DNA of 32,000 nucleotides from NCBI RefSeq assembly GCF_004103825.1, contig NZ_RYFI01000018.1, forward strand, positions 9,816-41,815, read 5' to 3'. Positions 222 through 11,333 of this stretch are shown one piece after another (the stretch's first letter is position 1; each line of letters opens with the position of its first letter). The position numbers and the translations under genes are program-made. Source of the stretch: Hansschlegelia zhihuaiae (GTDB lineage Bacteria > Pseudomonadota > Alphaproteobacteria > Rhizobiales > Methylopilaceae). The notes under the pieces are model-generated. The model was given only the letters and a program-made list of their open reading frames with translations, had not been told where the DNA came from and made no database searches.

Positions 222-425
222 TCAGGTCGCCGCCGGGATCGCCGCGAACCGGTGGCCCGTCTTGATCTCGCTGATCCGTCCGGGGTTCACGTCGTAGTCG
301 GCCGCGATCCGGTTCAAGAACTCACCCAGGCGGATGCGCTTCTTGATGGTCGGAACGTCTTCCGGCTTGATGCGGCGTGACGGCATGCGGAGCCCGGCCG
401 CGCCGGGCTTCTTTGAGCTGGTCAT
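222..425 (-). CDS. Small (67 aa) basic protein, possible helix-turn-helix DNA-binding protein; function unknown.
   Basis: Internal ATG (425-423) of ORF 222-617. The upstream part of that ORF is not protein-like. The C-terminal segment GEFLNRIAADYDVNPGRISEIKTG resembles an HTH. TGA stop at 222-224. Confidence 0.5.
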   Translation of the reverse strand: MTSSKKPGAAGLRMPSRRIKPEDVPTIKKRIRLGEFLNRIAADYDVNPGRISEIKTGHRFAAIPAAT

Positions 426-562
426 AAATGCTCTCCATACGACCAGTTGACAGGCAGTCGCCTTGATCGCGAGAGCGAACAGCGCTACGAATGTAGCATC
501 GGAGTTTGCTCTCATCCGTCCTGCAGCGACCACGAGTTTCGCAGGACCCGCTCCGATCCAAA

Positions 563-599
563 CGGCCTGAGGATTGCAGCCTCGGGCCGTTTTTCTTTT
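563..599 (+). terminator. Canonical rho-independent terminator on the plus strand with no plus-strand CDS upstream (orphan).
   Basis: 10-bp stem CGGCCTGAGG / CCTCGGGCCG (one G-U pair), 7-nt loop, followed by TTTTTCTTTT (590-599). Confidence 0.65.
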
Positions 600-898
600 C
601 GGCGCGGTCAACTTCAAAGCCTAGAGCGAGTCTTTCTCAGCCGTCGAGTCTGGAATCCCCCTATCCACGGACTGACCGCTATCCCTCGTGGAAACAACGA
701 CCTTTCGCCCACTAAATTTAGTTTCAAAGAACGCGTGAATCAAAGGTTGACGATGGTGAGGGCCGCCGCGAGACAAGCGGCTCTATAGCGGCCGGACGTC
801 CGCCGTCCGCATGTATTCTCGCCACCCGTTGAATGATCGCGGCGAATTGGACGCCGTCCGCGCTAAGGCGGCGCGCGCCTCGCCGCCGGACGCTGCGC

Positions 899-1531
899 TC
901 AGGCGCCCTGGAGCTTCAGCCGCTCGCCTATGACGTCGGGCCATCTGTGCGGCACGTGGTACACAGGCGGGCCCTCGGCGCTGACGATCGCGTGCATGAC
1001 GAAGCCCCCGATCTGCGTTCCGAGGCTCGCCGCCGGCGCGCGCCGCGCTTTCTCCATGGCCGCGACGCCGTCGGCGACGGTGAACGTCGCCAGGTCGGCG
1101 GGCATGTCCCCGACGTCCCCGGTCGTGAAGCACGCGACCTCATAGACCTCGCCGGCCGTCGCGCCGGGCAAGAGATCATGCATGGCGCGATAGAGCAGCA
1201 TCGGCGCGCCCCGCCTCGTCGACCAGCCCGCGATCAGCAGCTCGGTCGGCTGCCGCAGGAAGGGCTGCATGGCGGCGTCGTAGATCTCGAGGACCGCCGG
1301 CAGCCGATCGACGAAACTGTCGAAATCCGGCGCGCCCACGGCACTGCAGGCCGCCATGAACGCCCCGAAGCTCTCGCCGGCTCCGCGCGCGGTGAACACC
1401 GCATTGACGTCGGGCACCCGCAGGATCTTCTCCGCGACGGCCTTCAGGCGGTCCGAGCCCGGCGGGAAGACCGCGGCGTCGGCCAACAGGTGAACGCGGT
1501 CGGCCTGGACGACGCCGATCATCGCGCTCAT
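899..1531 (-). CDS. Hypothetical protein, 210 aa; candidate proteasome-beta/HslV-like Ntn hydrolase with an N-terminal Ser.
   Basis: Very high third-position GC and a clean ORF. Its ATG overlaps the upstream gene's stop (ATGA at 1531-1528). By-eye motif match to the T1 family: M-SAMIGVV..LLAD(18)AA..AEK(35)ILRV..FTARGAGESF; ELLIAGWSTRRGAPMLLY; IGGFVMHAIVSAEG. Confidence 0.8.
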   Translation of the reverse strand: MSAMIGVVQADRVHLLADAAVFPPGSDRLKAVAEKILRVPDVNAVFTARGAGESFGAFMAACSAVGAPDFDSFVDRLPAVLEIYDAAMQPFLRQPTELLIAGWSTRRGAPMLLYRAMHDLLPGATAGEVYEVACFTTGDVGDMPADLATFTVADGVAAMEKARRAPAASLGTQIGGFVMHAIVSAEGPPVYHVPHRWPDVIGERLKLQGA

Positions 1532-1698
1532 TTGCGCGGGGCCTCGAGGAGCACGACCGGCGCGACCATGGCGCCCAGCGCCTCGCCGGTCGGTCGAAGG
1601 ACCACCGGCGTCAGCGCGCCCGACGCGAAGAGCGCCCCGATCGTCGTGCTGACGCCGGCGAACCCGGCTGTGATCAGCGGCGCAACCAATGCCGGCAT
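1528..1698 (-). CDS. Small hydrophobic Gly/Ala-rich protein, 56 aa, probably membrane-associated.
   Basis: ATG at 1698-1696 is preceded by AAGGAG with 9-nt spacing. The ORF-track start at 1716 is a TTG inside that RBS region. Sequence begins MPALVAPLITAGFAGVSTTIGALFASGAL. Stop overlaps the start of the 899-1531 gene. Confidence 0.6.
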   Translation of the reverse strand: MPALVAPLITAGFAGVSTTIGALFASGALTPVVLRPTGEALGAMVAPVVLLEAPRK

Positions 1699-1747
1699 CT
1701 CTGCTTTCTCCTTCAAAAGGCGGCGCTTCGCCTGCAGGCGGGCTCGC

Positions 1748-2272
1748 TCAGCCCATGTGAAAATTGTCCGTGCATTCGATCGGGGCAGTCGCGGGAACGG
1801 ACGGATCTGCCGCGACCGTCGCGGTGAGCCACCACCGCGCCGGGGTCACCAAATCCGCGCCCGCCGCCAGGTCGCCCGCGAAGCGTATCGTCTCGCCCCG
1901 CCCCATCGACCGGGTCCATACGATCGCCGATTCTTCGAACGCTCCGAAGCCCGCGGCGCGATGCAGCCTCAGCGTCACGGCCGCACCGCTCGGCGACGGA
2001 CCGACCACGAACCCCGTCACGTCGAAAAATATTCCGAAGGTCCGATCGCCGGCGAGCGCGACGTGACATCCCCGCCTCAAGTAAAGTGTATTCTGGGGAG
2101 AGCTGGACGGCGGCAGCGTCGTGTCGAACCACGAGTGACCGGAGGCCGCAGCATCGCCATAGCTGATGCATAGCCTCCTCGGGTCGAGCGGGACGACTGG
2201 CTCGATCGGCATCTCGTCACCAATTTTGCCTCCGATATACGCCATTGGTTCGGACCGTTCCTCCCCCGTCAT
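1748..2272 (-). CDS. Hypothetical protein, 174 aa (alternative start at 2245 gives 165 aa); no recognisable family.
   Basis: Protein-like composition in the same orientation as its neighbours. Separated from the capsid gene by 142 bp that contain two GC hairpins. Confidence 0.6.
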   Translation of the reverse strand: MTGEERSEPMAYIGGKIGDEMPIEPVVPLDPRRLCISYGDAAASGHSWFDTTLPPSSSPQNTLYLRRGCHVALAGDRTFGIFFDVTGFVVGPSPSGAAVTLRLHRAAGFGAFEESAIVWTRSMGRGETIRFAGDLAAGADLVTPARWWLTATVAADPSVPATAPIECTDNFHMG

Positions 2273-2386
2273 CGCCTAATCGGCCCCGCCGGACCAGCGT
2301 CGCTGAAGTCGCCGGCCGCGCGCCCTCTGTTGGAAGGGCGCCGCCGGCTGTCGGGGTTGTTGCGGACACTCGCCGACTTGTCCGGC

Positions 2387-2406
2387 GGACGCGCCGAAGC
2401 GCGCCC
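2387..2406 (-). terminator. Post-capsid GC hairpin (8-bp stem including one G-U, UUCG loop on the minus-strand RNA). A second 7-bp hairpin lies at 2320-2341.
   Basis: GGGCGCGC-UUCG-GCGCGUCC on the minus strand, 8 nt after the capsid stop. No U-tract, so it may be a stabiliser or attenuator rather than a terminator. Confidence 0.35.
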
Positions 2407-2414
2407 GCAAGCCC

Positions 2415-3692
2415 TCACGCCGCGGGAAGGGCTTTGAGAACCTTGATGGCGTTGGTGTCGTAGGGCGATCCGCCGACCCGCTTGGTGCAGTAGAACAGCA
2501 CGTAGCCCTTGCGGGTGTACGGGTCGCGCAGCACCCGCATGTCGATCCGGTCGACGATGAGATAGCCGCGGTTGAAGTCGCCGAAGGCGATCGGGAATGT
2601 CCCGTTCGCGACGTCCGGCATGTTCTCGTCGATCTCGACCGGATAGCCCAGCAGCGTGGAGGGCTGGCTGCGCTCGACGCTCTGCCGCCACACGTAGTTG
2701 CCGTCCGCGTCCTTGATCTTGCTGATGATCCCGGCCGTTTTCGAGTTCATCAGCCAGGTCGCGTTGGCCCTGTACCCGGCCTTGAGCGTATAGACGAGGT
2801 CGATCAACTGATCGCACGAGGTCGGCTTGCCCGTTTCCGTGTCCAACTGCAGGGAGACGAATTCGATCTTGCCCCACGCTCGAACGTCGTCGCTCTCCGC
2901 GACCAGAGGCACGCTCAGGAAGCCGAGCGGCTTCGACACGCCGTCGCCTGTGATGAACGCGGCGTTCTCCTTCTCGTTGAAGGTGATCCGCACATCCTCC
3001 TGGAGCACGTTGAGGACGTCGAACGCCGAGTCGTCGAGCAGCTGCTGCGTCACAGCCGGCTGCGCGTACACTTCATTGGTCGGGACGGAGAGCATCCCCC
3101 ACTTCGGGGCGTCGGTCTCCGGACGGTCGTCATGCTCGGTCACCCAGCCGGCCGACAGCCCGCCCTTGTTGACCGGGATCTTGAACTCCGCAGCCCTGGA
3201 CGTCGCGAGGCGCGAGATCCGGCGCATCGCGCTGCCGTTGCGCAGGAACGTCATGATCTCGCGCGCCACCTCCTCGGGCACGAGATAGCCGCCGTCGACC
3301 TCGCTGCTGACCTGCAGCGGCGCGGCGAACTCGCTGTCCGCCACGGCCGTGAGGGCGCGGTGGTCCCCCGTCCGCATGAAGGCGAGCATCACCCCGCGAT
3401 CGCGATCAAGGCGCCCCGCCCGATCCTCGTCAGTCGCCATCTGCGAGAGCGCCACAGGCCGGCCATCGACGATACGCATCGGTCCCTGACGCCGGCCGAC
3501 GCCAGGGATCACCCGCCGGTCGCGCTCGTCGAGCTGGCGGCGAAGGTCGTCGATCGTGTCATTCGCTCGGCCGAGCGCCTCGGTCGTCGCCTGCGTGTTC
3601 TCCTCGAACGCGGCGGCCAGTTCCTCGAAAGAGCCGCTGCCGGCCAGCGGAGTGGCAGCGAAGGTCACGCGCGGAAGGGAAGTCGAAGTCAT
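2415..3692 (-). CDS. Phage major capsid protein, HK97 family (425 aa).
   Basis: N-terminal coiled-coil delta-like region (EELAAAFEENTQATTEALGRANDTIDDLRRQLDERD) followed by a typical HK97-fold body (GGYLVPEE.., ..FITGDG.., ..AFGDF..GY.I.DR). ATG at 3692 is preceded by AAGGAG at 8 nt and overlaps the protease stop (ATGA). Confidence 0.9.
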   Translation of the reverse strand: MTSTSLPRVTFAATPLAGSGSFEELAAAFEENTQATTEALGRANDTIDDLRRQLDERDRRVIPGVGRRQGPMRIVDGRPVALSQMATDEDRAGRLDRDRGVMLAFMRTGDHRALTAVADSEFAAPLQVSSEVDGGYLVPEEVAREIMTFLRNGSAMRRISRLATSRAAEFKIPVNKGGLSAGWVTEHDDRPETDAPKWGMLSVPTNEVYAQPAVTQQLLDDSAFDVLNVLQEDVRITFNEKENAAFITGDGVSKPLGFLSVPLVAESDDVRAWGKIEFVSLQLDTETGKPTSCDQLIDLVYTLKAGYRANATWLMNSKTAGIISKIKDADGNYVWRQSVERSQPSTLLGYPVEIDENMPDVANGTFPIAFGDFNRGYLIVDRIDMRVLRDPYTRKGYVLFYCTKRVGGSPYDTNAIKVLKALPAA

Positions 3693-4390
3693 CGGGAATG
3701 CTCCTTCATGGCGGCCGTGGCCGCGCGGACGCGAGCGGCGAGTGCTTTCGCGCGAGCCGCCTGGTCGGACAGAGGGGATCGGCGCGCATCGACCGCCGGC
3801 CATCCGCCGGCGGCGAGCTGCGTCGCCATGGTTTTCGAGAAGCCGACGCCGCGCAGCATCCGGTTGAAGTCGCGCTGCGTCGCGACGCTGGAAGCCGAGA
3901 GCAGCTGAGCCCTCGGGTCGGCCCCGACGGGGACCAGCGACACCTCGTGAAGGTCGATTTCAAGGACCGTCGCCGACTTCACGGCGTCCCGATTGTGACG
4001 CACGTCACGGGTCTGGAAGCCGATCGACAGGCCCGTGATGTCGCGAGCCTCGATCTGCTCGAACACCTCGGAACCCCAACGCGACTTGAGATTGATCTGG
4101 CCGGCAAGCCTCAGACCGTAGGAGTCGACGCTCATCTCGCTCCAGCGGCCGACGACGCGGTCGCTCTGATGGCCCAGCAACATCGCGGGCATCGTTCCGC
4201 GCTCCCGATGCTCCCGGATGGTCGCGTCGAGGGCGTGGGGGTCGATGATGAGATTGGCGCGGTTCGGGCTGGGCGTGAACGTCACCCCGTAGCCCGAGAT
4301 TCTGCCGTCTCGCGGCTTGGTCGCGCTGACGTCGAGCGCGAGGACCGGCCCGACGTGAAGTCCTGAGAAATCGAGTTGCTGATCGCTCAT
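3689..4390 (-). CDS. Phage prohead (head maturation) protease, HK97 family (233 aa).
   Basis: ISGYGVTF.., MLLGHQSDRVVG, GLSIGF, LHEVSLVPVGADPRA motifs. ATG at 4390 is preceded by AAGGTGG. Lies directly upstream of the capsid gene. Confidence 0.85.
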   Translation of the reverse strand: MSDQQLDFSGLHVGPVLALDVSATKPRDGRISGYGVTFTPSPNRANLIIDPHALDATIREHRERGTMPAMLLGHQSDRVVGRWSEMSVDSYGLRLAGQINLKSRWGSEVFEQIEARDITGLSIGFQTRDVRHNRDAVKSATVLEIDLHEVSLVPVGADPRAQLLSASSVATQRDFNRMLRGVGFSKTMATQLAAGGWPAVDARRSPLSDQAARAKALAARVRAATAAMKEHSR

Positions 4391-4926
4391 CGGCCACCTT
4401 TGGCGAAGCAAAACCCAGCGGGCGGCATGATGGCCGCCACGTAGAGCCTTGACCGAGCATCCCGCCCGCGCCGAAGGAGCCTCGAACCGCGCGCCCCAGC
4501 ATCCCGCCGGCGGCGCTCCTCAGTTCGATGAGCAGGTGAAGCGTAAGTCCGTCTCGAGTGATTTGACAAGAGGCCTCGTCGGCCTCCCGAAACCCTTGAC
4601 CCCGCAGCCCCACTCGTCAGCAGGTCGCCGCCGGGGGCGGGTTCGGTTCGTTCGATGGCCAGAGATTCACCGGCGAAGCGACCCGCGGCCTGGTGAGCAA
4701 GCACATCGTTCGCGACAGAAACGATGTCCGGCCGGCGAGCGCCGGCGGCCTCGACGCGTCGCCCGACGCACGGTCTCTCCCGTGCGCCAAGGTGGCCTAA
4801 GACTATGATCGATAAAAAAAATCTCGCGCTGAGTTTCGCGGCGGTTTTCGTTGCATTGACCCACCGGTCCGGGGCTGAAGGGTCCGAACTTTTGACCCGC
4901 CCCCCGCGGGGGCGGCCACCGACCTT

Positions 4927-5194
4927 GCGAGGGTTGCGAGGGTTCGCGAGGGTTCCCGTCAAACCCTCGCGGCCGAAATTCATATTATATATTAGATACT
5001 TATAAACATCTTGCGAGGGTTGCGAGGGTTTATAGACATGCACATAAGAGATTTCAGAAGTCATCCGCCTCTCCAATCGCTGTGTACGCGTGGGTGCGTA
5101 AACCCTCGCAACCCTCGCAAGCTCCTCAATCCTGAGGCCAGAACCCTCGCGCAAACCCTCGCCGAACCCTCGCAACCCTCGTCGCGCGAGGGTT
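4927..5194. repeat. Iteron-like array of the 9-mer GCGAGGGTT / AACCCTCGC.
   Basis: Forward copies at 4927, 4936, 4946, 5013, 5022 and 5186. Reverse copies at 4962, 5101, 5110, 5142, 5154, 5165 and 5174 (the last with 1 mismatch). One outlying reverse copy at 5440-5448. All counted directly from the sequence. Confidence 0.9.
4976..5012. other. Extremely AT-rich block (5 G/C in 37 nt) flanked by the iterons; candidate DNA-unwinding element.
   Basis: aaattcatattatatattagatacttataaacatctt, set in otherwise very GC-rich DNA. Confidence 0.5.
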
Positions 5195-5406
5195 GCGAGT
5201 ACGGGGAACTATTCATGGTGGGTTGCGGGTTGGCGGGGCGGCGGACCTGGAAACTGTCGGCCGACCCGATGAGGCAATGCCTGGTCGCGGCGCGCGGTGG
5301 CAGGCTCCGCGGTCCTTACCGGCCGCCAGGACGATCAGCCGAATCGGACATTTCAGCGAACGCCCAATAGCTGTGTCCCTAACGCCGGGAGGCGAAAGCC
5401 TGCCCC

Positions 5407-5439: not shown

Positions 5440-5612
5440 AACCCTCGCGGCCAAACCCGTATCGATCGAAGGGAGAGGTCAGCAACATTCACGCGGCCCC
5501 TTTGAGGGTGCATCGCGTTTTGCAGTCGGCTTCAGAGAGCGTTGATCTTCTAAGGCGTCAGTTCTTGGCGTTTGTCAGAAGAACGCCTGATTTCCCAAAG
5601 GCCTAGTCGAAA

Positions 5613-5657
5613 CTACGAATCTGGGGGTCAGAGGTTCGAATCCTTTCGGGCGCGCCA
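5613..5657 (+). tRNA. Partial tRNA-Arg(ACG): anticodon loop through 3' CCA only, with no 5' half. Probable attR core of the integrated element.
   Basis: CTACGAA anticodon loop, GGGTC variable loop, T-arm AGAGG-TTCGAAT-CCTTT, acceptor 3' strand CGGGCGC, discriminator G, CCA. The 35 nt upstream cannot form the acceptor, D-arm or anticodon 5' strands. Confidence 0.7.
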
Positions 5658-5854
5658 GAATTGCCTCCGGTTCGAACAAGACCGCGTATTTGGGCGCTTC
5701 GCGAGAGCCCCAAGGCCGACTTGGGCTCGGGCGAACTCGAAAGATCGACTCAGCTCTGCGGTTTGAACCGAGGACGACGACGATCCGTAGCGGATCGAAG
5801 CCGTCCGCCACGCCGAGCGCCCACCTTTTCAGCCCGCAAGGCTCTTGCGGCGGG

Positions 5855-6841
5855 TCACCTCCGGGCGTCGGCGAGCGCGCGATATTCGCCGACCTGCCAG
5901 AGCAGGATCGCCGGAACGCCGATCGCCAGGTCGCGGCCGCGCTTCAGCAGCGAGAGCGCCACGGCGGTCGCCGGCGGCAGGCCGAACAGCGGCCCGATCA
6001 GCACATAGGCGGCCTCCTGGATGCCGATCGCGCCGGGCACCGCGAAGGCGACGCTGCGCAGCGTGAAGATCAGCGCTTCGATCGTCATCACCCCCCAGAA
6101 CGGCGTGTCCGCGCCCATGAAGACGAGCGCGATCCACGCTCCGGCGGCGCTCGCGATCCACGCCAGGAGATTGAAGACGAAGGCGGCGAGGACGCGGCGG
6201 GGTCGTCGATAGACGGCGTCGAGCTGTTCACGCACCGCCGTCATGACCGCCTCCGATCCCGGCAGCAGTCTCGCGCCGAGCGCGCCGGCGAGCTGGAGCA
6301 TCGGGCGCTGGGCGAAGGCGAACGACGCCGCGAGCGCCGCGAGCGCCGCCAATCCGCCGGCGGCCATGGGAGCGATGTTCGCCTGAACGGCGCTGTCCGT
6401 CACCACCAGCAGCAGCAGCGCCGCGACGCCCGCCAGACTGAACAGCAGTTGCGAGGCCATCTCGGTCGTCAGGTCCACGATCATCGAGGCGTAGATGACC
6501 CGGTCGGAAATGCCGCGCGCCGCGAGCGTGCGGACCCCAACCGCGATCCCGCCGAGGTGCGAGAACGGCAGCACATCGGTCGCGGCCTCGCGCGCCGTGC
6601 GCGCCCAGACGAAGAGCGGCAGGCGCGCAAGCGGCTCGTCCGGCGCGACGACGAGCCACGCCATGCCGAGCAGCGTCAGAACGCCTCCCGACCAGAGGAT
6701 GAACACCACCATGCCGATCCAGCCGATCGACGCCATCGCGTCGAGCACTTGCCGGCCCCCGACCGCGCCGATCGTCCAGGCGGCGATCGCGAAGCCGATC
6801 ACGGTCGCAAGCAGCAGCAGGGCGCGGCCGTATCGCCTCAC
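5855..6841 (-). CDS. hpnL: Hopanoid-associated integral membrane protein HpnL (LPG-synthase-TM/UPF0104-like), 328 aa.
   Basis: Polytopic membrane protein at the end of the hpnI-J-K operon. GTG start at 6841 overlaps the hpnK stop (GTGA). The Arg-rich N-terminal extension of ORF 5855-7126 is rejected. Confidence 0.75.
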   Translation of the reverse strand: MRRYGRALLLLATVIGFAIAAWTIGAVGGRQVLDAMASIGWIGMVVFILWSGGVLTLLGMAWLVVAPDEPLARLPLFVWARTAREAATDVLPFSHLGGIAVGVRTLAARGISDRVIYASMIVDLTTEMASQLLFSLAGVAALLLLVVTDSAVQANIAPMAAGGLAALAALAASFAFAQRPMLQLAGALGARLLPGSEAVMTAVREQLDAVYRRPRRVLAAFVFNLLAWIASAAGAWIALVFMGADTPFWGVMTIEALIFTLRSVAFAVPGAIGIQEAAYVLIGPLFGLPPATAVALSLLKRGRDLAIGVPAILLWQVGEYRALADARR

Positions 6842-7668
6842 GGGAGATCCCCGAAGCGCGCCAGCGCCATGCCCTGCTCGGCGACCACATCGCGGAGGGC
6901 CATGAGCGCGGCGAGTTCGTCCGCATAGCGATAGCCCGGCGCGTGGCCCGGCCATGCGTCCGCGACGGCAGGATGGACGTAGATCTCGGTCACGCCGTCC
7001 GGCAGCGCCGCCAGCAGGCGTCTCAGCCGCTCCGCATGCATCGCGCCGCTCCAAGCGAGGCCGAACACCTGATCGGGAACGATCACGCCGGCGCGGCGGA
7101 AGCGTGCGGCGAGAAGGCGCGCCCACAGGATCGCCGGATCCCGCCGCGCCGTCACGCCAGGCTCCGCCGCCGCGAGCACGGCGCGCGGCTCGACCGGCGC
7201 GCGGGCGGCGCGCATGCCGTATCGCCTGCCGATCCTCAGGATCAGAGACGCGATGACGGGGTGGAGATGGAAATGCTTGTGCGCGTTGACGTGGTCGAGC
7301 GGCAGGCCGTTCGCCGAAAAGGCCGCGAACTGCGCTTCGATCTCGTTCGCGAGCTGGCGGCGCGCGGCGGGTCTGACTGTCACGCCGATCGCCGCCCGCA
7401 ACATGTCGCCGCGGAACCGGCCCGAGGAATCGACGAGATGCGAAACCTGTTCCGGCGGCAGCGTCGGGCGGCCCTCCACCAGCACGAGATGGAGCCCGAC
7501 CCCGAGAGACGGCAGCCGGCGCGCGCGCTCGACGGCGTCATCTGCGGCGGGCCCGGCGACCATCAGGCTCGCCGCGGTCAGCACGCCGTCGCGATGCGCC
7601 CGCTCGACCGCCTCGTTGACCGCGACGTCCGCGCCGAAATCATCGGCGGTGACGATAAGGGTCTTCAC
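6838..7668 (-). CDS. hpnK: HpnK, YdjC-family deacetylase (BHT-N-acetylglucosamine deacetylase).
   Basis: MKTLIVTADDFG.. and ..HVNAHKHFHLHP.. are YdjC hallmarks. GTG start at 7668 overlaps the hpnJ stop. Confidence 0.85.
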   Translation of the reverse strand: MKTLIVTADDFGADVAVNEAVERAHRDGVLTAASLMVAGPAADDAVERARRLPSLGVGLHLVLVEGRPTLPPEQVSHLVDSSGRFRGDMLRAAIGVTVRPAARRQLANEIEAQFAAFSANGLPLDHVNAHKHFHLHPVIASLILRIGRRYGMRAARAPVEPRAVLAAAEPGVTARRDPAILWARLLAARFRRAGVIVPDQVFGLAWSGAMHAERLRRLLAALPDGVTEIYVHPAVADAWPGHAPGYRYADELAALMALRDVVAEQGMALARFGDLP

Positions 7669-9098: not shown

Positions 9099-10237
9099 GA
9101 TGTCTGGTCCCGACGGTTCTCGAGGCGACCTGCAGCGTCCACGGCGAAGGTCGCGCCGCGCCATTCAACTGAACCCCTGAAGAATGTCCAGACGAACACG
9201 GCGAAGGAAAGGAGGTCACGCGCCGGGATCCAGCGCAGCGGCGCGGCGCGCGCGGCCGCCCGCCGGTCGACCAGCAGCGCGATCGTCAGCCGGGCCGCGA
9301 GCGCCGCGCCGATCGCCGCCAAGGACAGCGGCGTGAATCCCAGAAAGGCCGCCCCGACGAGCGCGGTCGGAAAGGGATGCAGAACGACGCTGCCGGCGAA
9401 GCCGGCCTTGTCGAGGCGCTGGATCGTGAGGCTCCAGCGCAGCTCCTGCCGGAGCAGCGCCTTCAGGCTGGTTTCGGCGCAGGCATGGGTCAGCAGCAGG
9501 TCGGCCAGGACGACCTCTTCGCCTCGGGCCCGGACGGCCGCGCCGATCGCATAGTCGTCGGCGAGACGGTCGGAGAACGCCGCAAATCCGCCGATCGCCT
9601 CGAGCGTCCGCGCTCGGAGCGCGATGGTCGATCCCATGCATGGGCTGGCGAGGCCGAGAGCCGTGCCGAGCAGGACGCTCGGCAGGAAGTGGGCGTTGAT
9701 CCCCATCGCGGCGAGCCGCGACCATCCCCCGGCGTCGCCGCGCCCGCGGTAGAGGCAGGTGACCGCCCCCACGCCCGGCGCGTCGAGCGCCGCCGTCACG
9801 CGCGCCAGATAGTCGCGGCCGACGGCCATGTCGCTGTCGCTCACGATCAGAACGGCGTGGCGGGCCTTGGCAGCCATGTTGACGAGGTTGGAGATCTTGG
9901 CGTTCGCGCCGTGGATCGTAGGATCGACCACCAGCGTGATGTCGGCCTGCGGGCGCGCCTCGCGCAAGGCTTGCACGACGGCGATCGCCGGGTCGGAGGC
10001 GCTCTGGACGCCGCAGACGAGCTGAACCGGACCGTCATGATTCTGGTCTAGGAAGCTCGCCAGATTGGCGAGCAGCTCCGGCTCCGCGCCGTGCAGCGGC
10101 TTCAGGATGGTCACAGCGTCGGCGCGGATCGCCGCGGGGGATCGCGGCGCGAACCGAAAGAGGCGCGCCGCGGCGACCAGCAGGCACGCCGTTCCGGCCG
10201 CGGACAGCAACAGCAGGGCGTAGCCGGCATAGTCCAT
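9095..10237 (-). CDS. hpnI: HpnI, family-2 glycosyltransferase (ceramide-glucosyltransferase-like), 380 aa from ATG 10237. The longest ORF runs to 10321.
   Basis: N-terminal TM helix followed by a GT2 core (..VTILKPLHG.., ..VSDSDM.., ..DDYAIG.., ..QELRW..). Start 10321 would overlap the hpnA start codon on the other strand and has no RBS. Confidence 0.8.
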   Translation of the reverse strand: MDYAGYALLLLSAAGTACLLVAAARLFRFAPRSPAAIRADAVTILKPLHGAEPELLANLASFLDQNHDGPVQLVCGVQSASDPAIAVVQALREARPQADITLVVDPTIHGANAKISNLVNMAAKARHAVLIVSDSDMAVGRDYLARVTAALDAPGVGAVTCLYRGRGDAGGWSRLAAMGINAHFLPSVLLGTALGLASPCMGSTIALRARTLEAIGGFAAFSDRLADDYAIGAAVRARGEEVVLADLLLTHACAETSLKALLRQELRWSLTIQRLDKAGFAGSVVLHPFPTALVGAAFLGFTPLSLAAIGAALAARLTIALLVDRRAAARAAPLRWIPARDLLSFAVFVWTFFRGSVEWRGATFAVDAAGRLENRRDQTS

Positions 10238-10319
10238 GACCGACCAATGCCCCAGTCGCGCAAGAAGGTCGATCTCTGCTTCTCGCGATACGGTGAGGCG
10301 TTTAGGGTCGATCGTCGTC
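10238..10319. promoter_or_regulatory. Divergent hpnI / hpnA intergenic region; presumed to hold both promoters.
   Basis: Positional inference only; no consensus promoter elements were recognised. Confidence 0.3.
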
Positions 10320-11333
10320 ATGGAGGAAACGCTGACCCGATCGTCCGACCTTGTCCTTCTGACGGGCGCGTCAGGCTTTGTCGGGGCGGCCGTCGCGCGC
10401 GCTTTGCTGCGGCGCGGCTACAAGGTGCGGGCGATGGCGCGCGCGTCGAGCCCAAGGACCAACCTCGCCGACCTCGACGCGGAGATCGTGGTCGGCGACT
10501 TGCTCGACCGCGCGTCGCTCGATCGCGCGATGGCGGGCGTCGCGCGCCTCTGCCATGTCGCCGCGGACTACCGCATCTGGGCGCCGGATCCCGAGGAGAT
10601 CGTCCGCAACAACCTGGCCGGAACCCGTAACCTCATGGAGGCGGCGCTCGCGGCCGGCGTCGAGCGGATCGTCTACACCAGCAGCGTCGCGACGCTGCGA
10701 CCGGACCCCGCGGGAGTCGCCGACGAAAGCCGACCCGCGGCGCCGGACCAGGCGGTCGGCGCTTACAAGAGAAGCAAGGTCGAGGCGGAGCGGATGGTCG
10801 AACGGATGGTCGCCGAGCGCGGCCTGCCCGCGGTGATCGTGCTGCCCTCCACGCCGATCGGGCCGCGCGACGTGCGGCCGACGCCGACCGGACGGATCGT
10901 CGTCGAGGCGGCGTCGGGACGGATGCCGGCCTTCGTCGAGAGCGGGCTCAACCTCGTCCATGTGGACGACGTCGCGGAAGGCCACGTGCTGGCGCTGGAG
11001 CGCGGCCGGATCGGCGAGCGCTACATCCTGGGCGGCCAGGACGTTTCGCTGCGCGCGATGCTGGCGACGATCGCGCGGCTCGCCGGGCGCCGGGCGCCGA
11101 CGATCAGCCTGCCGCGCGCGCCGCTGTTTCCGCTCGCCTGGGTCAATGAGCGGATGGCGCGACTGACGGGCAGGGAGCCTTTCCTGACGCTCGACGGACT
11201 GCGCATGGCGGCGCATGCGATGTATTTTTCGAGCGCGAAAGCGCAGAACGAGCTCGGCTACAGCGCGCGGCCCTACGAAGCGGGGCTGAAAGACGCCATC
11301 GACTGGTTCCGGCGCGAGGGAATGATCGCGTGA
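10320..11333 (+). CDS. hpnA: HpnA, hopanoid-associated NAD-dependent sugar epimerase/dehydratase-family protein, 337 aa.
   Basis: LLTGASGFVGAAV Rossmann motif and YKRSK catalytic YxxxK. First gene of the plus-strand hpn operon. Confidence 0.85.
   Translation: MEETLTRSSDLVLLTGASGFVGAAVARALLRRGYKVRAMARASSPRTNLADLDAEIVVGDLLDRASLDRAMAGVARLCHVAADYRIWAPDPEEIVRNNLAGTRNLMEAALAAGVERIVYTSSVATLRPDPAGVADESRPAAPDQAVGAYKRSKVEAERMVERMVAERGLPAVIVLPSTPIGPRDVRPTPTGRIVVEAASGRMPAFVESGLNLVHVDDVAEGHVLALERGRIGERYILGGQDVSLRAMLATIARLAGRRAPTISLPRAPLFPLAWVNERMARLTGREPFLTLDGLRMAAHAMYFSSAKAQNELGYSARPYEAGLKDAIDWFRREGMIA

Follow-up and report, generated by a model that had tools for sequence, protein, structure and literature searches.

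The window analysed here is a stretch of 32,000 nucleotides (nt) from Hansschlegelia zhihuaiae (contig NZ_RYFI01000018.1, positions 9,816 to 41,815), and the subject of this work is one of its genes, coding for a protein of 210 amino acids (aa) that is predicted to be an N-terminal nucleophile (Ntn) hydrolase of the proteasome-beta/HslV type. On the minus strand the transcription order is S78 prohead protease, HK97-type major capsid protein, an intergenic spacer, and three open reading frames (ORFs) of 174, 56 and 210 aa (Table 1). As described in the original prediction, which was made from the DNA letters alone, the three ORFs are co-oriented and lie downstream of the capsid gene, with GC-rich hairpins between; in computed folding the spacer reaches -84 kcal/mol (z = -2.2). 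The ribosome-binding site that had been proposed for the 56-aa gene is present as AAGGAG 9 nt 5' of its ATG, and the TGA that ends this ORF and the ATG that opens the 210-aa gene overlap as ATGA. The 210-aa protein begins with Met-Ser-Ala and has no propeptide.

Table 1. Features of the window discussed in the text (positions are counted from the first letter of the window).
Feature	Position	Strand	Remarks
67-aa ORF	222-425	-	downstream of the Ntn gene
GC hairpin with T-run	560-592	+	13 bp, strong; between the Ntn gene and the 67-aa ORF
446-aa ORF	833-2173	+	Arg/Ala/Pro-rich; antisense to all three genes
210-aa predicted proteasome-beta/HslV-like Ntn hydrolase	899-1531	-	WP_128778676.1, annotated "hypothetical protein" (Hansschlegelia zhihuaiae)
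56-aa Gly/Ala-rich hydrophobic protein	1528-1698	-	from the ATG; 62 aa if the start is the TTG at 1716
174-aa ORFan	1748-2272	-	NCBI version 165 aa, from Met10; predicted all-beta, low confidence
Spacer between the capsid gene and the 174-aa ORF			142 nt, GC-rich
Hairpin RNA element, Proteo-phage-1-like	2346-2413	-	directly 3' of the capsid stop codon
HK97-type major capsid protein	2415-3803	-	PF05065 E = 9.6e-85; phrog_10 E = 1.8e-80
S78 prohead (head-maturation) serine protease	3689-4411	-	PF04586 E = 1.8e-19; phrog_80 E = 1.6e-33
Repeat cluster	4921-5199	.	repeat families D3, D5, D11; inverted pairs I3-I5, I12
tRNA 3'-end fragment (T-arm, acceptor strand, CCA)	~5610-5660	+	GGTTCGAATCCTTTCGGGCGCGCCA; 5' half not present

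The 210-aa protein alone gave no meaningful match in Pfam, PHROGs, NCBIfam, PADLOC or the PDB sequences, in agreement with the claim that it is not a known structural phage protein; a Cupin_6 match (E = 0.004, below the cut-off of that model) was dismissed as noise. A word-indexed search of 5.8 billion proteins returned only the protein itself and one weak relative, and an exhaustive HMMER search of 1.84 billion cluster representatives recovered 178 relatives at E <= 1e-3, 29 of them at E <= 1e-10, nearly all 200-240 aa long and aligned from residue 1. Conservation was counted in an alignment of 165 family proteins, with the numbering of the window's 210-aa protein. Position 2 was Ser in 102 and Thr in 60 of the 165 (162 together), Asp18 was found in 164, Lys35 in all 165, and Gly50 in 161. 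Similarly conserved were Gly102 (161/165), Ser104 (155/165), Arg163 (164/165), Gly175 (163/165), Gly176 (151/165), Trp197 (164/165) and Asp199 (162/165), and the C-terminus carries a conserved motif, H-x-W-P-D-x-[IV]-G-E. The proteasome-like motifs that had been read by eye are thus real, and at the level of the family they lie far beyond chance. Nearly all family proteins begin with M-S/T-A, and the few other N-termini are apparently mis-called starts. In the one case examined directly, Methylopila henanensis protein P0004 (locus L002), the annotation is 15 residues short: the true ORF begins with MSAVLAW at position 9956 rather than at the annotated 10001, and its start and the tape-measure stop codon overlap as ATGA. 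This locus carries two family paralogs (6273-6908 and 9956-10618).

The AlphaFold2 model of the 210-aa protein, predicted as a monomer on the basis of 19 family sequences, had a mean predicted local distance difference test score (pLDDT) of 91.6 and a predicted TM-score of 0.90, and its order of strands and helices is that of the Ntn sandwich. When the model was compared with the PDB by Foldseek, 50 of the 50 matches listed were beta subunits of 20S proteasomes, whose sources ranged from archaea to mammals (probability 1.0, TM 0.55-0.64, E = 4e-9 to 1e-7). A few phage proteins in BFVD share the fold, with a best E of 1.7e-5, and are farther from the 210-aa protein than true beta subunits are. 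In the model, Ser2 opens strand 1, Asp18 ends strand 2, Lys35 opens strand 3 and Gly50 follows strand 4, which are the topological positions of proteasome Thr1, Asp17, Lys33 and Gly47. Helices H1 (residues 53-65) and H2 (70-91) are predicted, and the second helix pair is represented by one helix only. Alignments of the family profile with the beta subunit beta1i and with Escherichia coli HslV were both in register, pairing S/T2 with Thr1, D18 with Asp17, K35 with Lys33 and G50 with the oxyanion glycine. The modelled structure and the conservation pattern together support a proteasome-beta/HslV-type Ntn fold with its catalytic set, as had been proposed, and the protein is very probably an active enzyme of the proteasome type.

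Compared with the 20S beta subunits and HslV (MEROPS family T1, PF00227), the family thus shares the Ntn alpha-beta-beta-alpha fold and the catalytic set at the same positions, and the GG that follows Ser169 in beta subunits can be matched by eye to G175-G176. It differs from them in using Ser as the majority nucleophile, in having no propeptide and only a single helix in the modelled second helix pair, and in showing no equivalent of the GSG(128-130) motif or of Asp166. The near-invariant S104, the invariant R163 and the C-terminal motif are specific to the family. Its genes are encoded in phage-like tail modules and adjoin no HslU-type or other AAA+ unfoldase gene: an HslU-like gene was found in none of the neighbourhoods surveyed below, where the sole AAA-type genes are of the AAA_25 primase/helicase type and stand several genes away. 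An HslV orthologue is ruled out by the missing HslU together with the strong divergence of the sequences.

The genomic context of the family was surveyed in 17 independent loci, this window included. A motif-restricted alignment of the family retrieved three genome loci and two IMG/VR loci, and a single-protein scan of the genome contigs gave no match. A tape-measure gene was adjacent, or nearly so, in 12 of the 17 loci. It lies immediately upstream of the family gene in L001, L002, L003, L006, L007, L010, L018, L021 and L023, and farther upstream, beyond one to three small ORFs, in L015 and L008; in L012 it is the next gene downstream. In L005 and L022 the upstream gene encodes a tail assembly protein like lambda gpI (phrog_31, E = 6e-7 and 7e-7; phrog_32, E = 2e-3) with a Gly-rich hydrophobic C-terminus, and in L017 and L019 it encodes a long, Gly-rich unclassified protein, which in L019 also ends in a Gly-rich hydrophobic stretch; in this window only the 56-aa hydrophobic peptide is present at that place. 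A Gly/Ala-rich hydrophobic stretch in fact forms the C-terminus of most upstream partners, and in nine loci the start codon of the family gene overlaps the upstream stop codon as ATGA or GTGA. The genes that follow the Ntn gene are tail-fibre-like in L003 and virion structural in L012 and L017, and in L023 a second tail assembly chaperone follows. The tape-measure proteins of L002 (7716-9959) and L015 (7450-9765) contain an internal VanY (D-Ala-D-Ala carboxypeptidase) domain, which by domain assignment suggests that the tape-measure protein itself carries a cell-wall-degrading activity.

These results indicated that the family belongs to the tail module and not, as first read from this one locus, to a head-proximal module. 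The earlier statement that none of the three proteins resembles a tail protein holds for their sequences; it does not hold for the context, since in most loci the family gene is adjacent to tape-measure or gpI-like genes. A role in head maturation is ruled out in this window, where a separate S78 protease of a different fold is encoded for that task. Prohead proteases of caudoviruses (S78, S77 or S49) have a herpesvirus-protease-like or ClpP-like fold, and their genes stand between those of the portal and the capsid.

The best explanation of the data as a whole, to which we assign a probability of about 0.5, is that the tail-module gene encodes a propeptide-less Ntn peptidase that would process the C-terminus of its partner. 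Host methionine aminopeptidase, for which Ser and Thr are among the favoured small P1' residues, would remove Met1 and so expose Ser2 (Thr in about one third of the relatives) as the nucleophile, and this residue would act with Asp18, Lys35 and an oxyanion hole at Gly50. The peptidase may then trim or otherwise process the Gly-rich hydrophobic C-terminus of the co-translated tape-measure or tail-tip partner, during tail-tip assembly or during DNA delivery. For the narrower claim, that the predicted enzyme acts in tail or tape-measure maturation, we put the chance at even or slightly under.

Such a role would parallel that of the lambda peptidase gpK, which is encoded beside gpI. Both are peptidase genes in a tail-tip assembly block, and in L005 and L022 the family gene adjoins a gpI-like gene as gpK adjoins gpI; the likeness is positional only, because the fold and the catalytic mechanism of gpK are entirely different. 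gpK combines MPN/JAB and NlpC/P60 domains, an architecture that Iyer, Burroughs and Aravind reportedly described in 2006, and no JAB or NlpC/P60 match was found in the family with Pfam or PHROG models.

The same gene order could also be read structurally. In siphophages the gene next after the tape-measure gene is that of the distal tail protein. The proteasome-like proteases 20S, HslV, BPH and Anbu form hexameric or heptameric stacked rings, those of HslV being six-fold, and the family gene is coupled to its upstream gene as if for stoichiometric production, so that the protein might be a hexameric, HslV-like ring at the tail tip that replaces the distal tail protein and retains its catalytic residues for folding or as relics. 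We consider this improbable: the catalytic set is kept near-absolutely over sequences that are only 25-35% identical, which argues for catalysis, and the gene precedes the tape-measure gene in L012 and stands among head-completion and terminase genes in L005.

A proteasome-fold enzyme on a phage-like element is not new in kind, contrary to the original prediction, since such enzymes were reported in 2021 (PMC8665760). In that study Fuchs, Alva and Lupas described 22 new proteasome-like families, among them PPH, AAH, RPC and DPH, of which PPH and AAH are phage-borne and RPC and DPH were found in proteobacteria only (PMC8665760). Thr1 or Ser1 was accepted as the nucleophile in those families, which have no propeptides and for which no gene context hinted at a function (PMC8665760). 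Like them, the present family is divergent and propeptide-less, has the Thr1/Ser1-Asp17-Lys33-Gly47 set and lacks the C-terminal helix H5, and they occur on phages, in prophage regions and in proteobacteria; in contrast to them, it shows a strong tape-measure association. PPH proteins are about 140 aa long, RPC proteins consist of a PPH-like part and a C-terminal domain, and both lack helix H2 (PMC8665760), whereas the present family measures 200-240 aa with H1 and H2 predicted. The larger size and the predicted H2 therefore place it outside PPH and RPC, as far as these are set apart by their descriptions. It may be DPH, of which 37 sequences are known with WP_074989469.1 as the representative (PMC8665760); the distribution of DPH, with few sequences and these in proteobacteria only, is compatible with this, and WP_074989469.1 was not among the ten 90%-identity clusters inspected.

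Another relative described in that work is connectase, a proteasome-fold enzyme of methanogenic archaea, to which it is restricted, which uses an N-terminal nucleophile on one specific partner and is not a bulk protease (PMC8665760). Connectase, a proteasome homolog that is monomeric, uses the same catalytic set to ligate proteins (PMC8665760). By analogy, the family might be a transpeptidase or ligase that works through an acyl-enzyme intermediate and covalently joins or cyclises tail components, linking for example the tape-measure protein with a tip protein. The near 1:1 translational coupling to one partner would suit a single-turnover or partner-specific reaction of this kind, and the invariant W-P-D-x-[IV]-G of the C-terminus could serve as a recognition element. 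The modelled structure argues otherwise: H1 and H2 are missing from connectase, whose active site is covered by an insertion of two helices between strands 3 and 4 (S3-S4, Fuchs et al.), whereas the AlphaFold2 model keeps the H1/H2 pair and shows nothing like that insertion between these strands. In addition, no ligation motif is known in the partners. A ligase function is accordingly given a small chance only.

The original prediction had taken the three ORFs as a cassette. Homolog searches in related loci rule out a conserved three-gene cassette: the 174-aa protein has no homolog and a counterpart of the 56-aa protein was found only in an H. beijingensis element (L015), so the genes do not recur as a set of three. 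Among 5.8 billion proteins the 174-aa protein was its own sole match, it matched no family model in Pfam, PHROG, NCBIfam or PADLOC, and its single-sequence AlphaFold2 prediction (pLDDT 46) gave an unusable model. A phmmer search with filters off, in which the 174-aa and 56-aa proteins were compared with all ORFs of 14 related loci, gave no match. Judged by these searches, the 174-aa protein is not a conserved partner of the Ntn gene. The 56-aa protein is homologous to a 79-aa protein of the H. beijingensis element (alignment score 66 vs. 32 +/- 5.7 for shuffles, with 0 of 500 shuffles reaching it), and no other homolog was found. That element also encodes the closest relative of the window's Ntn protein, 48% identical to it. 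Its 79-aa gene (9765-10004) lies between the Ntn gene and the gene for a 771-aa, VanY-containing tape-measure protein (phrog_10574, E = 1e-144), with stop/start overlaps on both sides. In composition the two free-standing peptides resemble the Gly/Ala-rich hydrophobic C-terminal stretch of the upstream partners. The N-terminus of the 79-aa protein is signal-peptide-like (MERTRKMRLGLTGLSGLATLLGSTGTANA/DP), and the 56-aa protein has no such N-terminus.

The presence of a small hydrophobic protein directly upstream had suggested a lysis pair, in which this protein would be holin-like and the Ntn enzyme an amidase on peptidoglycan peptides. The 56-aa protein is indeed hydrophobic, with a grand average of hydropathy of 1.09; its best 19-residue Kyte-Doolittle window, however, reaches 1.61, which is borderline for a transmembrane helix. 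The signal-peptide-like N-terminus of the H. beijingensis counterpart and the wide range of amide bonds cleaved within the Ntn hydrolase class are in favour of such a pair. A small-protein partner is, however, found in only 2 of the 17 loci, the enzyme needs a free N-terminus and has neither a signal peptide nor a cell-wall-binding domain, and the VanY domains of the L002 and L015 tape-measure proteins would already supply a wall-degrading activity. We therefore regard a lysis function as very improbable, and the suggestion gained little support.

The elements that carry the family are small, about 8-17 kb, and besides an integrase, AlpA and a primase (AAA_25 or PrimPol/VapE) they encode only part of a virion gene set. 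The set varies: L005 has portal, S78 protease, capsid, connector, head-closure and terminase genes and is like a capsid-forming PICI (cf-PICI), L015 has capsid, neck, tape-measure, small-peptide and Ntn genes, and the virion genes of L010 are the tail assembly chaperone, tape-measure and Ntn genes only. By gene content, from which alone their status is deduced, the carriers resemble phage satellites, with which they share the integrase, AlpA, the primase types and the partial virion gene set. The described cf-PICIs have no tail genes and take their tails from a helper phage (10.1101/2022.09.08.507074); in contrast, many of the carriers (L006, L010, L015 and L023) have genes for both a tape-measure protein and a tail assembly chaperone. 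All identified hosts are Hyphomicrobiales (Rhizobiales), namely Hansschlegelia, Methylopila, Ciceribacter/Rhizobium, Bradyrhizobium, Devosia and Methylobacterium, and a member is carried by each of two IMG/VR contigs and by each of two small Methylobacterium/Methylorubrum plasmids, one of them p3META1 of M. extorquens AM1. The p3META1 member (L019, NC_012810.1, 3640-4578) has an extra C-terminal extension of about 80 aa and follows a gene for a 549-aa Gly-rich protein; the plasmid also encodes ParA, PrtN and a separate tape-measure family gene. A search by tblastn with two members did not find the family in 50,697 sequenced phage genomes. The label phage-borne is thus apt insofar as the carriers are phage-like, satellite-like integrative elements, and not in the sense that a sequenced phage carries the family. 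A bolder proposal, which we hold to be tentative and rather doubtful, is that Hyphomicrobiales harbour an unrecognised class of satellites in which the family, as a protease or as a connectase-like ligase, is dedicated to maturing the tape-measure protein or the tail tip; these elements would carry their own tail-length module (chaperone, tape-measure and Ntn genes) besides or instead of head genes. If this were true, a viral proteasome homolog would for the first time have an assigned function, and tape-measure processing would have its first identified enzyme.

Several observations weigh against a processing peptidase of the tail module. On the side of the enzyme, sequence comparison by itself gives weak evidence of superfamily membership. 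The family profile matched PDB beta subunits (beta1i) only marginally (E = 0.3-2.4) and HslV with an hhalign E of 0.013 at a probability of 3%, and PF00227 was matched by 0 of 58 members even at E <= 10. As those 58 members matched no other Pfam family either, the family falls, by sequence criteria, outside the curated T1/PF00227 set. The juxtaposition of Ser2, Asp18 and Lys35 in space is moreover one that we infer from topology only. On the side of the gene context, no tape-measure gene is adjacent in this window, L005 or L022. Because an enzyme need not be made in a fixed ratio to its substrate, the ATGA coupling could point to a structural role, and for a generic tail-assembly factor it is unexpected that the family was not found in the 50,697 isolated phages. 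Finally, the family gene is closely followed by defence-type cargo in two loci, AbiTii in L001 (2775-3641) and a CTD12/MC8/DUF2326 cluster in L006 (10941-13948). This would also suit an accessory gene placed last in a late operon, and it is consistent with accessory-gene hotspots at the end of a structural operon.

That cargo, the satellite-like make-up of the carriers and the negative search of isolated phages are what might be expected if the family were itself satellite cargo, an accessory protease for defence, counter-defence or interference with a helper, which would degrade a host or helper-phage protein such as the helper's tape-measure protein or the ejection proteins of an incoming phage. 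Against this, neither the three window proteins nor protein P0002 matched a PADLOC model at E <= 1, the family gene stands between structural genes in L003, L012, L017 and L023, and in most loci its start overlaps the stop codon of the tape-measure gene, which points to co-expression from the late structural operon and not from a cargo promoter of its own. An accessory function is therefore judged unlikely, and the defence reading of the original prediction, like the lysis reading, found little to sustain it. A peptidase that processes the C-terminus of a tail protein thus remains the explanation that we prefer.

Other features of the window concern the element on which the gene resides. The hairpin element behind the capsid gene matched RF03044 (Proteo-phage-1) with 29.3 bits, below the gathering score of 42 (E = 0.032 when 7 kb were searched, 9e-4 when 200 nt were), and both single-stranded conserved segments of that motif, AAGUCGG.GAGUG and AAC.CCG.CAGCC, were matched; it is probably a diverged member of the motif. 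Upstream of the S78 protease gene, the repeat cluster comprises iteron-like repeats, GCGAGGGTT(GCGAGGGTT), in at least 6 copies, direct and inverted, around an AT-rich patch, tataagtatctaatatataatatgaat, and looks like an iteron-type replication origin or a regulatory or operator array of the element. The tRNA 3'-end fragment gave a partial RF00005 match (17.7 bits, E = 0.19, model positions 9-71), and ARAGORN found no intact tRNA in the window. The fragment is probably what remains of an attachment site and, with the repeat cluster, probably marks the element's right end; the intact tRNA and the integrase gene would then be expected left of the window. Between these right-end features and the S78 protease gene there is no gene for a portal, a terminase or a tail protein, and the element extends to the left past the edge of the window. 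The window copy is intact but stripped down, with no tape-measure gene and only the 56-aa hydrophobic peptide upstream of the Ntn gene. Downstream of the Ntn gene, the 67-aa ORF shows a helix-turn-helix-like segment (GEFLNRIAADYDVNPGRISEI) by eye and matched no family model; the hairpin with T-run stands before it. The 446-aa antisense ORF is probably an artefact of high GC content and no gene.

What is new here is the coupling of a proteasome-type enzyme to the tape-measure gene, together with the features specific to this family, Ser104, Arg163, the C-terminal motif and the single helix of the second pair. The small islands with integrase, AlpA and primase genes that also carry a tape-measure gene, and sometimes a capsid gene, are a poor fit to the described satellite families. 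The tight coupling to tape-measure and gpI-like genes provides a concrete, testable hypothesis for one orphan proteasome homolog, and experiments are feasible because a member is encoded on p3META1 of Methylorubrum extorquens AM1, a model methylotroph. The tape-measure proteins of several siphophages are proteolytically processed, as in the conversion of lambda gpH to H*, and we know of no identified protease responsible for this processing. If the proposed function is correct, a dedicated Ntn peptidase encoded alongside its substrate would solve tape-measure processing in a new way.

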